Assembly: GCF_003334785.1 (NCBI RefSeq)
Contig: NZ_QOWV01000044.1
DNA: 5,439 nucleotides
Origin: Escherichia coli
Lineage (GTDB): Bacteria > Pseudomonadota > Gammaproteobacteria > Enterobacterales > Enterobacteriaceae
Reading direction: 5' to 3' (one strand)
Part shown: positions 426 to 5,439 of the stretch, in pieces
How the letters are laid out: each line of letters starts with the position of its first letter
Position numbering within the stretch: the stretch's first letter is position 1
Position numbers and translations under genes: made by a program
Notes under the pieces: model-generated
What the model was told of the DNA's origin: nothing
The model's database searches: none
Seen by the model: the letters and a program-made list of their open reading frames with translations, nothing else

Positions 426-1055
426 AAATTTTAGTACGGTAACAGTTAACTAAATTTTCATGTGGTAGCACTGAATCAGGAGACTGCGTTTCCTGATGTG
501 CGCTGTTAATTTTCTGTTTTTACGAAACATTTTCCCCTTCTTCCTGTGTATTTTATTGCGCTCCTCCTTTCATGTCCTTCCCATATCCTGAAACTCACTT
601 AAATGCTGTTGAATCGTCACGCATTGCAATTTTCAATGACTGAAATCAAAAATTGCTACTTTTTAGGCTAACCAACTGTATTAAAAGCATTCAGTGGAAT
701 AATTTTCTGCACTTTTCCATTAATTATGGTTATAAATTTTGCAATGTGCTGTTTTTGCGATATGTGACAGAATAAAGAACTGTTCATTTGTGCTATATCG
801 ATCGATAAATCTGTCATATTGCTGTAGTTCAGATCATTATTCTATAATGATCAAAAATAAGTCAGCTAAAAATTGGCAGATTTATTGCTCAGCATTCTGG
901 TACCGGTTGATGCGGGTAAATACCGGAAGGGCGGTAGCGTGCCATCGCAAAACATGGTGGGAGGTATCGTCAGGAGGCTGGTGATTGTTGGTATGACATG
1001 AATAAAAGGTTTTTCGTTTGACTGGAAAATTATGTTGCAGGAACGAGAGGGCTGA
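426..1055. promoter_or_regulatory. AT-rich non-coding region, likely promoter and silencing region
   Basis: Hand count of 661-780 gives about 30% G+C, against about 50% in a sampled stretch of the helicase gene (2281-2340). The only ORFs here (739-984 plus, 866-1102 minus) are Cys/Ser/Trp-rich and lack ribosome-binding sites. AT-rich tracts of this kind in horizontally acquired DNA are typical H-NS targets (established knowledge); binding is not shown by the sequence. Confidence 0.4.
819..848 (+). promoter_or_regulatory. Candidate sigma70-type promoter (-35 TTGCTG, 18-bp spacer, -10 TATAAT)
   Basis: Seen in sequence: TTGCTG at 819-824 and a perfect TATAAT at 843-848, oriented rightward toward the tpsB remnant and helicase gene. 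AT-rich DNA contains many chance promoter-like hexamers, so this is weak. Confidence 0.15.
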
Positions 1056-1517
1056 GGAACAAAGCTTATTCCGGCGCTGTCCGTCCTTGCTGTCACTGAC
1101 ACTGATGTCTGTTTTATTATCGCCTTTATCTCTTCAGGCCGCGGATATCAGCGCCAGCTGAGCAATACCCCGCTGACCCCACAGGAACAGTTTGCCATCG
1201 GTAACCGCTGGACGGTTCGTGGTTTTGACGGGGAGCGAACGCTGAATGCCAGTAACGGCTGGTATATCCGCAACGACCTGGCCTGGCGTACGCCACTGCC
1301 GGAGCAGGAGTTATATCTGGGAATGGATTACGGCGAGGTGGGGGGAGCCGGCAGTGAATACCTGGTGGGACGTCATCTGGCCGGTGGTGTTGTGGGGCTG
1401 AGGGGGCAACTGTTCAGTACGGATTATGACGTTTTCATCGGTCGTCCGTTTTCAAAACCGGCGGGTTTTATGACGAGTGATGTGACAGCCGGTTTTAATC
1501 TGTTCCGGGATTTCTGA
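1056..1517 (+). pseudogene. 3' remnant of an Omp85-superfamily two-partner-secretion transporter (TpsB; ShlB/FhaC/CdiB-like hemolysin-activator family)
   Basis: The reading frame is open from the stop at 1053-1055 to TGA at 1515-1517, but the first ATG is at 1323, with no credible start or signal peptide. The translation ...[59 protein letters not shown]...[25 protein letters not shown] contains the conserved (V/I)RG(F/Y) loop-L6 motif of Omp85/TpsB barrels (VRGF at 1215-1226) about 100 residues before a C-terminal aromatic residue (terminal F). Only about 150 codons are present; full-length TpsB proteins are about 550 aa. Confidence 0.6.
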
Positions 1518-1526
1518 GAAAATTTC

Positions 1527-3305
1527 ATGCGTAACGGGAAATATGACGTTCTGAGTCCCCTGTATTCCGGTGAGAGGAGGGTGGCTTCACGACTGGAGAG
1601 TTTTCTGAATGATGACTGCCTTGTCTGGTACGATATCCCGGTGGGACGGAGAAACCGGCATCCGGATTTTGTCATTATTGACCCGGAGAACGGACTGGTA
1701 TTTCTGGAGGTCAAGGACTGGACGATTTCCACGCTGCGTGAGGCAAATCAGGAGCAGGTCACGCTGGAAACCGACGGTCTTCTGAAATCAGAAATAAATC
1801 CGCTGGTACAGGTTCGTCGTTATGCCTGTGATACTGTTAATGCCTTACCCTCAGACCCGTGCTTACGGCAGAATGACGGTCAGTATAAGGGACGACTGAA
1901 CTTGGCCTGGGCGTATGGTGTGGTGTTTACCCGCATTACCCGTCAGCAGCTGAAGACCCTGACAGGGAATGATGAGAATGCGGTGGAAAAGATTTTCCCT
2001 TCAGCACAGACAATCTGTCAGGATGAAATGACGCAGTCTGTTTTACCTGAGGTATTCCGGCAAAAAATTGCCGGGATGTTTACCACGGGGTTCAGAACCC
2101 GGGTGACACCCCGGATGAGAGATATTCTGCGCGCCCATCTGTTTCCTGAAGTGACCGTGAAACAGAACTCACAAATCAAAATCATGGATATCCAGCAGGA
2201 GATTCTGGCCAGAAATATTGGTGACGGACATCGTGTCATTCATGGTGTGGCCGGTTCCGGAAAAACCATGATTCTTTTGTTCCGTTGCCTTTACCTGGCT
2301 GAGACCACACCCGGAAAGATTCTGGTGTTGTGCTACAACATTACCCTGGCCAGCTATCTGCGGGAATGCATTGAGGCCAGAGGGTTGACGTCACGGGTTA
2401 CGGTATCTCATTTTCACAGCTGGTGTGCCTCAATGGTAAAACGCCACGGTATTCAGGTGACGGCAGACAGAAAAGAATATCCTGAGAAATGCTTCAGTGT
2501 ACTGGAAGAGGCTGTGAACAGCGGAAAAATCACCCGAACCGGATATGATGCTGTGCTCGTGGATGAGGGGCATGATTTTGACAGTCGTTGGCTGGCCCTG
2601 ATTGCCCGTCTGTTTGATAACGCATCCCGTTCACTGCTCCTGATGTACGATGATGCCCAGTCCATTTACCGACGGGAGCGGGCCCTGAACTTTTCTCTGG
2701 CCAGTGTGGGGATTCAGGCACAGGGACGTACTTCTGTTCTGCCGGTCAATTATCGTAATCCGAAACGCATTCTGCACTTTGCTTATGCATTCTCCCGCGA
2801 GTATTTTGAAAAACATCAGAACCGTGAAATACCACTCGTTCAGCCACAGGCGGGTGGTGAAGAGGGCACAGAGCCGGAAATCCTGCGTTGTGCTTCTGAA
2901 CGTGATGAAGCCAGACAGGTTGCAGACTGGCTGGAGAAGCGCCATGCCCTGTGCGGTCACTGGAGTGATATGGCTGTTCTGTGTCCGGCAGAGTTTTCAG
3001 TGAAACAACTGAAAGAGGTTATGACACAACGCGGGATACCGTTTGCCACCTGCTTTGACAGTGAAGGTAAGAAGGCATACTCGCGACGTAAGGATGTGGT
3101 GCATTTACTGACATACCAGAGCAGTAAGGGGCTGGAGTTCCCGTATGTGGCGGTTATCAATGCTTCTTTCGTTCCTTCTGGTGTAGCGGATGAGTCTGAA
3201 GTAATTCCGGTGCTTTATGTGGCGTTTACCCGGGCAACCCGTGAATTACTGGTGACCTGTTACCGTGAAAACAGTATCAGTCGTCACCTTGAGAATTTTG
3301 CATAA
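1527..3305 (+). CDS. NERD (PD-(D/E)xK nuclease-related) domain fused to a UvrD-like superfamily-1 helicase, 592 aa
   Basis: Long uninterrupted ORF with an ATG at 1527. N-terminal region: SGERRV...HPDFVIIDPENGLVFLEVKDW, with PD at 1662-1667 and E-V-K at 1707-1715, matching the NERD / PD-(D/E)xK pattern. Helicase motifs: motif I Walker A GVAGSGKT (2244-2267); motif II Walker B VLVDEGHD (DEGHD at 2562-2576); motif III-like YDDAQSIY; motif IV-like NYRNPKRIL; motif V-like LTYQSSKGLEFPYVAV; motif VI-like LYVAFTRATREL. The order and spacing match UvrD/Rep/PcrA-type SF1A helicases, but the protein is too short to carry a large 2B insertion. The Shine-Dalgarno sequence is weak (GAGA about 10 nt upstream). 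The start lies 9 nt after the stop of the tpsB remnant. Confidence 0.85.
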   Translation: MRNGKYDVLSPLYSGERRVASRLESFLNDDCLVWYDIPVGRRNRHPDFVIIDPENGLVFLEVKDWTISTLREANQEQVTLETDGLLKSEINPLVQVRRYACDTVNALPSDPCLRQNDGQYKGRLNLAWAYGVVFTRITRQQLKTLTGNDENAVEKIFPSAQTICQDEMTQSVLPEVFRQKIAGMFTTGFRTRVTPRMRDILRAHLFPEVTVKQNSQIKIMDIQQEILARNIGDGHRVIHGVAGSGKTMILLFRCLYLAETTPGKILVLCYNITLASYLRECIEARGLTSRVTVSHFHSWCASMVKRHGIQVTADRKEYPEKCFSVLEEAVNSGKITRTGYDAVLVDEGHDFDSRWLALIARLFDNASRSLLLMYDDAQSIYRRERALNFSLASVGIQAQGRTSVLPVNYRNPKRILHFAYAFSREYFEKHQNREIPLVQPQAGGEEGTEPEILRCASERDEARQVADWLEKRHALCGHWSDMAVLCPAEFSVKQLKEVMTQRGIPFATCFDSEGKKAYSRRKDVVHLLTYQSSKGLEFPYVAVINASFVPSGVADESEVIPVLYVAFTRATRELLVTCYRENSISRHLENFA

Positions 3306-4804: not shown

Positions 4805-4818
4805 ACGGACATCTAAGT

Positions 4819-5244
4819 ATGGAATTACAGGACTGGCGAAAAGAACCTCGTAAAAACTATTCGAATGAATTCAAACTTCGTATGGTGGAACTGGCATCAC
4901 AACCTGGAGCTTGTGTTGCACAGATTGCACGTGAAAATGGCGTCAATGATAATGTTATTTTCAAATGGCTCAGGCTCTGGCAGAACGAAGGGCGTGTTTC
5001 GCGGCGTCTTCCGGTAACGACCTCTTCTGACACTGGCGTTGAATTATTACCTGTAGAAATAACGCCGGATGAGCAGAAAGAACCTGTGGCGGCCATTGCG
5101 CCGTCTTTATCCACTTCCACTCAGACCAGAGTCAGTGCCAGTTCCTGCAAGGTGGAATTCCGTCACGGTAACATGACGCTGGAAAATCCATCGCCAGAGC
5201 TGCTCACAGTGTTGATCCGTGAACTGACCGGGAGGGGAAGATGA
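4819..5244 (+). CDS. tnpA: IS66-family accessory protein OrfA (TnpA), 141 aa
   Basis: Translation MELQDWRKEPRKNYSNEFKLRMVELASQPGACVAQIARENGVNDNVIFKWLRLWQNEGR... matches my recollection of IS66/ISEc8-type orf1 proteins, which carry a helix-turn-helix-like N-terminal region. The stop overlaps the orfB start. Confidence 0.85.
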   Translation: MELQDWRKEPRKNYSNEFKLRMVELASQPGACVAQIARENGVNDNVIFKWLRLWQNEGRVSRRLPVTTSSDTGVELLPVEITPDEQKEPVAAIAPSLSTSTQTRVSASSCKVEFRHGNMTLENPSPELLTVLIRELTGRGR

Positions 5245-5439
5245 TCTCACTCCCATCAGGTACCCGTATCTGGCTCGTTGCCGGCGTTACCGATATGCGT
5301 AAATCCTTCAACGGACTGGGAGAACAGGTACAACATGTGCTGAATGATAATCCCTTCTCCGGTCACCCGGAGCAACACCTCCGCCCCTTCCGGGGTATCC
5401 TGCAGGCGGATGCGTTCACAGGTTACGACAGGTTGTTCA
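5241..5439 (+). CDS. tnpB: IS66-family OrfB (TnpB) N-terminus, partial at window edge; apparently fused in-frame to a transposase (TnpC)-like segment
   Basis: Translation MISLPSGTRIWLVAGVTDMRKSFNGLGEQVQHVLNDNPFSGH matches the IS66 orfB N-terminus as I recall it. The following residues PEQHLRPFRGILQADAFTGYDRLF do not match the expected continuation (LF.FRGRRGD...), and instead resemble the G.LQ.DGY.GY motif region of IS66 DDE transposases. The ORF is open to the window end. Confidence 0.6.
   Translation, partial: MISLPSGTRIWLVAGVTDMRKSFNGLGEQVQHVLNDNPFSGHPEQHLRPFRGILQADAFTGYDRLF

Follow-up and report, generated by a model that had tools for sequence, protein, structure and literature searches.

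A stretch of 5,439 nucleotides from the Escherichia coli contig NZ_QOWV01000044.1 (hereafter the window, at its full length) carries a long open reading frame (ORF) for a NERD nuclease-UvrD helicase fusion protein surrounded by remnants of other genes. We consider it likely that the window is the relic of a defence hot spot at the tssE-vasL end of a type VI secretion system (T6SS) cluster, lying in a pheU/pheV-type island beside a class IV cdiBCAI locus, that the helicase is a PDLC01087 candidate defence enzyme that has become chimeric in this clone, and that the IS66-family insertion sequences (IS) arrived later. The apparently intact helicase ORF is a chimera made by a deletion and not the native gene. 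The locus as a whole is a case of ordinary E. coli genomic-island erosion; an earlier note on this DNA, which described several decayed genes around one intact, selected or recently acquired helicase, was partly right in its observation and is partly supported in its interpretation.

The chimera becomes visible by comparison with two relatives, enterotoxigenic E. coli (ETEC) strain TW10722 (L001; comparison loci carry L numbers here), which is 99.9% identical to the window, and strain 300709 (L002), which is equally 99.9% identical, IS insertions excepted. A BLAST comparison covers the window with three collinear blocks of TW10722, in which positions 8001-9574 correspond to window 1-1574, 11688-15489 to window 1566-5367, and 16692-16767 to window 5364-5439. 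Relative to this closest complete relative, the window has thus lost a further 2,122 bp and 1,206 bp in two deletions. In both TW10722 and 300709, cdiC starts 10 bp past the cdiB stop and the helicase gene lies 2.1 kb further on. The larger deletion took the body of cdiC, a frameshifted GIY-YIG/T5orf172 gene, the upstream region and promoter of the helicase, and the first 16 helicase codons. The deleted GIY-YIG/T5orf172 gene is intact in strain STEC384, where it encodes 388 amino acids and has a PADLOC match (E=1e-88) to PD-Lambda-1, a validated defence system of one gene. The resulting features of the window are as follows.

1527-1565, plus strand: first 13 codons of cdiC, now the start of the helicase ORF (the cdiC ORF of TW10722 begins MRNGKYDVLSPLYSGEPV)
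1566-1574, plus strand: junction of the clone-private 2,122-bp deletion, with microhomology at 8 of 9 bases (TCCGGTGAG in cdiC, TCCGGGGAG in the helicase gene)
1527-3305, plus strand: chimeric cdiC'-NERD-UvrD ORF of 592 amino acids, matched by Pfam NERD, UvrD-helicase and UvrD_C and by PADLOC PDLC01087
about 1566-1841, plus strand: NERD domain within ORF 1527-3305, with D...ExK at 1665-1718
2244-2267, 2556-2579 and 2646-2669, plus strand: superfamily 1 (SF1) helicase motifs I, II and III within the same ORF
2745-2759, 3111-3140 and 3219-3248, plus strand: SF1 motifs IV, V and VI within the same ORF

The native gene of TW10722 and 300709 begins MAKLINVSASTEERMTSGERRV and encodes 595 amino acids from a MAKLINVSAS start, whereas the window ORF begins MRNGKYDVLSPLYSGERRV; its product starts with MRNGKYDVLSPLY, derived from cdiC, and the native N-terminus MAKLINVSASTEERMT is lost. 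With it, the conserved N-terminal MAx(L/M)IP...T-GE(K/R)R segment of the PDLC01087 family is missing from the protein, and the ribosome-binding site, codons 1-13 and everything further upstream are cdiC-derived. The earlier note had taken this ORF for an intact gene, and it is indeed stop-free and retains the NERD D...ExK motif and SF1 motifs I-VI, but its own start and first 16 codons are gone. A microhomology deletion in this TW10722-like clone created the in-frame cdiC'-helicase chimera, which would now rely on cdi transcription and translation signals. As a general caution, a stop-free ORF with every catalytic motif may still be a deletion-made chimera, a condition revealed here only by near-identical relatives.

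Both private deletions are genuine and mark a clone close to ETEC TW10722, because the identical window sequence recurs in independent draft assemblies. Neither junction was found in 5,426 complete E. coli genomes, an empty search that briefly raised the idea of assembly or sequencing artefacts and that remains the one point in its favour; the idea was dropped after a look-up of the exact protein gave identical draft contigs. Draft contigs that encode the exact 592-amino-acid product number at least nine and come from several independent samples. Four of them, three from NCBI assemblies and one re-assembled from raw reads by Logan, match the window at 100% identity through both junctions, and one contig spans the entire deleted IS and further. 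Moreover, homologies of 8/9 bp and 4 bp at the junctions fall well below the length at which an assembly graph would collapse, and an artefact is barely credible. The second private deletion is in frame as well. Both outcomes would be in frame by chance about once in nine, and the two fusions (cdiC'-helicase and tnpB'-'tnpC) are probably an unremarkable coincidence.

By its sequence, the encoded protein combines a NERD PD-(D/E)xK nuclease and an SF1A UvrD-like helicase in one polypeptide and belongs to the candidate defence family PDLC01087/C3a187. Pfam NERD (PF08378) matches residues 14-105 of the window protein at E=3.4e-10, and the NERD residues D50, E64 and K66, in native numbering, are conserved in the family alignment. 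The helicase motifs GVAGSGKT, LVLCYN, LVDEGHDF, YDDAQSIY, VNYRN, TYQSSKGLEF and VAFTRATREL follow one another between residues 240 and 574 in the order that defines SF1A UvrD/Rep/PcrA-like helicases (I GxGKT, Ia, II DExx, III-VI), with Pfam matches to UvrD-helicase, UvrD_C and UvrD_C_2. PADLOC PDLC01087 (C3a187, NERD+UvrD) matches at E=7e-138, residues 10-591 of the protein aligning with positions 13-556 of the 559 in the model, and the native N-terminus aligns with model positions 1-190. The family comprises 569 clusters at 50% identity (E<=1e-30). An AlphaFold2 model (mean predicted local distance difference test score 85) places residues 3-6 in a beta-strand and, together with Foldseek, shows two RecA-like domains with a UvrD-type fold; the top Foldseek matches are UvrD, PcrA and Rep (E ~1e-17, template modelling score ~0.45-0.49), followed by weaker matches to Schlafen nuclease-helicases. 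Sequence and fold searches of the PDB returned generic SF1 helicases and Schlafens only, and no solved NERD-UvrD protein.

The importance of the exchanged segment depends on where the family's proteins begin. The Prokaryotic Genome Annotation Pipeline (PGAP) starts the helicase at an internal methionine (MTSGERRV; 581 amino acids), at position 11682 of TW10722 as against 11640 for the upstream ATG. Across 22 aligned sequences, including 20 representatives at 28-59% identity, G18 never varies and conservation of M1, A2 and I5 reaches 90% or more; a MAx[LMIV][ILV] start is present in 61 of 107 full-length representatives of the 50%-identity clusters, and the homology block common to all E. coli contexts begins no more than 2 bases from the upstream ATG. 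Because the family N-terminus is conserved and the shared E. coli block has its boundary there, the sequences place the true start at the upstream ATG, giving 595 amino acids rather than the 581 of PGAP, a correction to the current annotation.

The lost N-terminus therefore probably matters, to judge from its conservation, and we lean slightly toward a chimera that is impaired rather than fully active, since the lost segment corresponds to the family's near-invariant N-terminal strand, as predicted. A real possibility, which we hold to be somewhat short of probable, is that the cdiC'-helicase fusion is neutral or adaptive: two dead genes would have been cleared and an active helicase placed under the cdi promoter and the cdiC translation start, a promoter capture for which it would have been retained. 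The fusion is in frame, keeps all NERD and SF1 motifs, with the Pfam NERD match beginning at residue 14, and still has the cdiB upstream region and the cdiC start in front of it; the chimera's presence in at least nine contigs from several independent samples indicates that the clone has spread. Yet the 16 residues swapped out hold the near-invariant MAxLIP motif and a predicted beta-strand, the in-frame state is shared by the other private deletion at a joint chance of about one in nine, and there have been zero substitutions since the event, so persistence is uninformative on selection. A promoter and terminator scan of 430-1700 gave chance-level matches and no plus-strand sigma-70-like site, and is uninformative on expression. 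The window interval 430-900, between the DUF4222 gene and the cdiB start, is AT-rich (GC content 31-35%) and presumably corresponds to the cdi regulatory region on which the chimeric helicase would now depend. Native and N-terminally swapped forms make a natural allele pair, usable for studying the function of the family and the role of its N-terminus.

The origin of the helicase locus is indicated by its nearest homologues outside E. coli, which share 58-66% identity and lie inside intact T6SS clusters ordered TssM, TssA/VasJ, TssF, TssG, TssJ, TssE, [small ORF], [PD-Lambda-1-like], helicase, VasL, the PD-Lambda-1-like gene being often present. The order tssE-helicase-vasL occurs in Serratia nevei, Cedecea neteri, Yersinia pekkanenii, an Enterobacteriaceae metagenome-assembled genome and GCA_025215155.1. 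In five T6SS-bearing loci, the helicase (L017 6001-7812; L025, L029 and L030 ~10001-11790; L028 2455-4242) is separated from vasL, on the same strand, by a gap of at most about 26 bp. Downstream of vasL, Serratia nevei carries a type II CBASS operon. The helicase also occurs without T6SS neighbours, in Pantoea, Citrobacter braakii and Salmonella diarizonae. In E. coli itself, what lies to the left of the helicase varies and the right side is stable: an Ail/Lom gene is contiguous with the helicase in 506 genomes and a GIY-YIG gene in 138, while the series helicase-small ORF-vasL 5' end is found in 551, and a tssE pseudogene stands directly upstream in some contexts. Neighbours on the E. coli islands include Qat and SLATT, and PD-Lambda-1-like genes occur in relatives, in agreement with the view of the helicase as defence-island cargo put forward before. 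The tssE-vasL end of the T6SS cluster has the look of a hot spot for defence genes that is conserved, and it gives a candidate NERD-UvrD defence family a reproducible context, with PD-Lambda-1-like, CBASS and Qat genes as companions.

Two modular arrangements were considered and rejected. An obligate two-component system of GIY-YIG protein and helicase is contradicted by the contiguity of the two genes in only 138 of about 1,032 carriers, and in the Yersinia, Cedecea, L017, Pantoea, Citrobacter and Salmonella loci an intact helicase occurs with a mere remnant of the GIY-YIG gene or with none. A helicase-small ORF-vasL module, linked as these genes are in 551 genomes, is undone by the frameshifting of vasL in several lineages with an intact helicase and by the absence of the small ORF outside E. 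coli.

The helicase is present in 1,048 of the 5,426 complete E. coli genomes (19%), on pheU/pheV-type islands, and its locus is not a conserved core locus. Conserved gene order with intact neighbours in relatives, which had been named as the finding that would speak against mobile cargo, is seen in part, for vasL in the intact T6SS clusters with 58-66% identical helicases, but not as a core locus. At least 80% of the gene is held by 616 of the 1,048 carriers, and about 40% hold truncated copies. The O157:H7 copy, in O-island 122 at pheV, is interrupted by an IS66-family element near nucleotide 790 of the helicase gene. That island (nleB, nleE, espL2) shares with the window the tssE pseudogene, Ail/Lom gene and NERD-helicase segment that stand beside tRNA-Phe and an integrase; compared with its cut copy, the window helicase is full-length except for the swapped start.

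Substitution patterns, expressed as the ratio of nonsynonymous to synonymous rates (dN/dS, by the Nei-Gojobori method), show that the helicase has been under historical purifying selection, both between E. coli alleles and between genera, during the decay of its neighbours (T6SS, PD-Lambda-1-like, cdiBCA). Between E. coli alleles, the helicase has dN/dS of 0.12-0.19 at dS of 0.08-0.19, with p as low as 4e-23; vasL has 0.19 between two intact alleles, and frameshifted vasL copies have 0.38-0.41, significantly above the helicase value for these genome pairs (p <= 4e-4). This is the comparison with flanking remnants that had been proposed as a check. Selection cannot, by contrast, be read from the openness of the window ORF, as had been suggested: the junction base is the sole difference from the helicase of TW10722 and 300709, the surrounding pseudogenes are likewise unchanged, and openness says nothing on selection in this lineage because such near-identity left no time for decay. 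Against these two strains, there are no informative substitutions for selection since the deletion. Nor is the helicase the only open gene, since the DUF4222 gene and the 92-amino-acid ORF are open as well, with dN/dS of 0.07-0.2 on few substitutions.

The same comparisons bear on how the helicase came to its place. The earlier note had asked whether it is recently acquired cargo, intact and selected, that was brought or mobilised by IS66-family activity. IS66-family elements do lie on both sides in direct orientation, in the manner of a composite transposon, IS66 elements or fragments abut the helicase in L003, L006 (a plasmid), L008 and L009, and 15 of 1,095 matching places are plasmid-borne. 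However, a composite transposon would have one target duplication shared by its outer ends and none at its inner ends, whereas here each IS has its own 8-bp target duplication at both its ends (TATAAACG for the upstream element, CGACAATC for ISEc23), and strain 300709 retains both empty sites in the same island. No two contexts share an IS insertion point, configurations without an IS are common (L002, L004, L005, L007), helicase-vasL synteny is older than E. coli, and the ORF itself is chimeric rather than intact. Recent acquisition or delivery by IS66 is accordingly contradicted at this locus and very unlikely; the recurrence of IS66 near the helicase, each time at another point, points to an IS-rich island and not to a vehicle. 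Both IS66-family elements are later, independent insertions in situ, and the island is eroding through serial small deletions and IS66-family insertions.

The conserved position next to T6SS genes might also mean that NERD-UvrD is a T6SS accessory, serving DNA or RNA processing or regulation rather than immunity, with its survival in E. coli incidental or due to a new role. The tssE-vasL position, the strand and the gap of at most about 26 bp are conserved in five T6SS loci of different genera, and the tssE pseudogene and vasL still flank the helicase in E. coli. We nevertheless regard this as quite unlikely, given that purifying selection is seen where the T6SS has gone in E. coli, that the gene survives in the non-T6SS loci of Pantoea, Citrobacter and Salmonella diarizonae, that its companions at the site are defence genes (PD-Lambda-1-like, CBASS, Qat), and that distant homologues stand alone or beside McrB and TIR genes. 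Another proposal, that GIY-YIG/T5orf172 and NERD-UvrD form a long-conserved tssE-vasL insert in which NERD-UvrD, alone or with its partner, is coupled to the T6SS and whose last working piece is the one in E. coli, is unlikely too; such coupling would be exemplified by immunity co-regulated with contact-dependent attack, or by processing of nucleic acid entering in T6SS duels.

For the relic of a defence hot spot, the function of the helicase is proposed by analogy. The PDLC01087 name traces to cluster 187, "NERD+UvrD", which had three members in type III CRISPR neighbourhoods and Dole_0738 as representative (Shah et al. 2018). The window protein shares the full-length architecture of that family, with NERD at the N-terminus and the UvrD-like SF1 helicase at the C-terminus; unlike the type III CRISPR context, there is no CRISPR-cas nearby, the surroundings are those of a T6SS-relic and defence island, and the protein has a foreign 13-residue N-terminus. 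A review lists the NERD domain PF08378 in the Nhi-like and Mokosh type I systems, and Nhi (nuclease-helicase immunity) of Staphylococcus epidermidis is reported to be activated by phage SSB and replication complexes and to degrade phage DNA. NERD-UvrD has in common with Nhi and Nhi-like proteins the logic of a single gene for a nuclease and an SF1 helicase. The Nhi-like system reportedly goes back to Millman and colleagues in 2022. By this analogy, the protein would probably act as a single-gene anti-phage system, loading on phage replication or recombination intermediates, translocating with ATP and cleaving through NERD. Gabija offers a more distant likeness: the helicase core is homologous to GajB (PADLOC GajB models, E ~1e-22 to 1e-12, with partial core matches only), but the nuclease of the window protein is fused in cis as NERD, and no GajA (OLD ATPase-TOPRIM) gene occurs in the window or in L001 and L002.

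Several observations weigh against the relic of a defence hot spot and its candidate immune enzyme. The defence label of C3a187 is based on three type III CRISPR neighbourhoods, which makes the family a candidate only, and homologues of 37-45% identity in other Gammaproteobacteria lie in unrelated contexts, alone or beside McrB or TIR genes. No model named Nhi is among the PADLOC matches of the whole protein or its NERD region, the presence of such a model in PADLOC-DB 2.0.0 being unverified. Clonal sampling inflates the carrier counts in complete E. coli genomes, O157:H7 being one of the heavily sampled clones. As to the chimera, it is in frame with all catalytic motifs and could be fully active, the effect of the N-terminal swap is judged from conservation and a predicted strand, and the promoter scan described above gave no plus-strand site.

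The left flank contains the remains of the cdi locus and of the upstream IS66-family element.

1-93, plus strand: right end of an ISEc47-like IS66-family element, ending ...CGCTTAC, the same as TW10722 (L001) 8001-8093 and 95.7% identical to the right end of ISEc23
234-425, minus strand: intact DUF4222 gene of 63 amino acids at the left flank of the cdi locus (RefSeq WP_001287884.1; PHROG matches)
1105-1161, plus strand: 5' remnant of cdiB (tpsB), with 15 native signal-peptide codons from the ATG at 1105, after which the native frame is lost up to a stop at 1159-1161, as read from the sequence
1146-1517, plus strand: 3' stub of cdiB (ShlB/FhaC family), 123 codons, from alignment to the cdiB of strain D10 and a PGAP pseudogene call

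The target duplication of the upstream element, TATAAACG, lies at 94-101, opposite an empty site in strain 300709. DUF4222 has dN/dS of 0.065 against L005, and neither it nor cdiC has a PADLOC match. Strain D10 keeps DUF4222, cdiB, cdiC (a toxin-activating lysine acyltransferase gene) and cdiA at the same island position, and the full cdi gene order is present in D10 and STEC2018-607. The order cdiB, cdiC (HlyC-type lysine acyltransferase), cdiA downstream of DUF4222 in D10 agrees with the class IV cdiBCAI loci of Halvorsen et al. 2021 (PMC8510554), but unlike that intact arrangement the window retains 15 and 123 codons of cdiB and 13 of cdiC, with cdiA and cdiI absent. Relative to D10, cdiB has lost about 1.24 kb internally, with a 4-bp junction at 1146-1149, and its two remaining pieces are out of frame; homology of the 5' remnant to L007, L005, L008 and L010 stops at ~1149-1151, and PGAP annotates in relatives a ShlB/FhaC/HecB pseudogene lacking its N-terminus at window 1146-1517. 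The reduction of tpsB to a 3' stub recorded earlier is thereby confirmed, with the 15 native 5' codons to be added to the 123.

The right flank continues from the helicase into a small ORF, a vasL-like gene and ISEc23.

3371-3676, plus strand: small ORF, 101 amino acids in other E. coli lineages and 92 here from ATG 3398, with a TAA at codon 4 (3380-3382)
3731-4733, plus strand: first 334 codons of an ImpA_N-TM-VasL-like gene, cut by ISEc23, with a target duplication copy CGACAATC at 4726-4733
4734-5439, plus strand: left part of ISEc23 (IS66 family), starting with the inverted repeat GTAAGCG, with tnpA at 4819-5244 and tnpB' at 5241-5366 fused in frame to 'tnpC from 5364

The small ORF has no family match in NCBIfam, PADLOC or PHROGs in either its 92- or its 101-amino-acid form, and its dN/dS is 0.09-0.2 on very few substitutions. 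It occupies the 425-bp spacer between helicase and vasL in E. coli; in other genera the spacer is ~26 bp and the ORF is absent. The vasL-like gene is a single uninterrupted ORF of 454 amino acids in 300709 (L002 13763-15127) and 453 in STEC384 (L007 12408-13769), in both of which Pfam recognises ImpA_N at 8-109 and VasL at 302-443, with a hydrophobic segment between them. The window copy is broken at codon 334, within the VasL domain, and no longer holds ImpA_N and VasL in one ORF. The protein has no match in PADLOC or PHROGs. RefSeq/PGAP splits the gene into three "incomplete" pseudogene pieces even in strains with an uninterrupted ORF, and this annotation should likewise be corrected to one 454-amino-acid ORF in IS-free strains.

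In TW10722 and contig L011, ISEc23 is bracketed by the two copies of its 8-bp target duplication CGACAATC, and in 300709 the site is empty, which bears out the reported interruption of the VasL-like gene after codon 334. Like ISEc47, ISEc23 agrees with the IS66 family in its tnpA-tnpB-tnpC order, terminal GTAAGCG/CGCTTAC repeats and 8-bp target duplications. Unlike the complete element, the window copy is missing two thirds of tnpB at the 3' end and tnpC up to codon 316: the internal deletion of 1,206 bp, also recognised earlier, has its junction at 5364-5367 and joins tnpB codon 41 in frame to tnpC codon 317. In contig L011, the same fusion forms a 262-amino-acid tnpB(1-41)-tnpC(317-end) ORF, followed by the IS right end and the 3' part of vasL. 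Judged by these losses, the window copy should be non-autonomous. The three decay events counted earlier are too few, since the helicase deletion, the upstream IS66 insertion and the TAA in the small ORF are present as well.

Further defence-like gene sets lie on the same islands, in strain 300709 (L016, 4756-4767 kb) and in L005 and L008 (16.6-21 kb). One combines an SNF2 protein with an AAA ATPase, an S8 peptidase, a methyltransferase and a DEAD helicase; the other comprises a DEAD/DEAH helicase with an ATP-binding protein, and IbrAB with PerC also occur.

On plasmid pE102651_74 (74 kb; L006 8956-10704), a 92-93% identical helicase lies between an IS66 fragment and sodC, the one context in which IS-mediated relocation of the helicase looks plausible. 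In the window itself, the ISEc47-like and ISEc23 flanks, with ends ~96% identical and in direct orientation, bound a 4.6-kb segment, and homologous recombination between them could delete it whole, helicase included.

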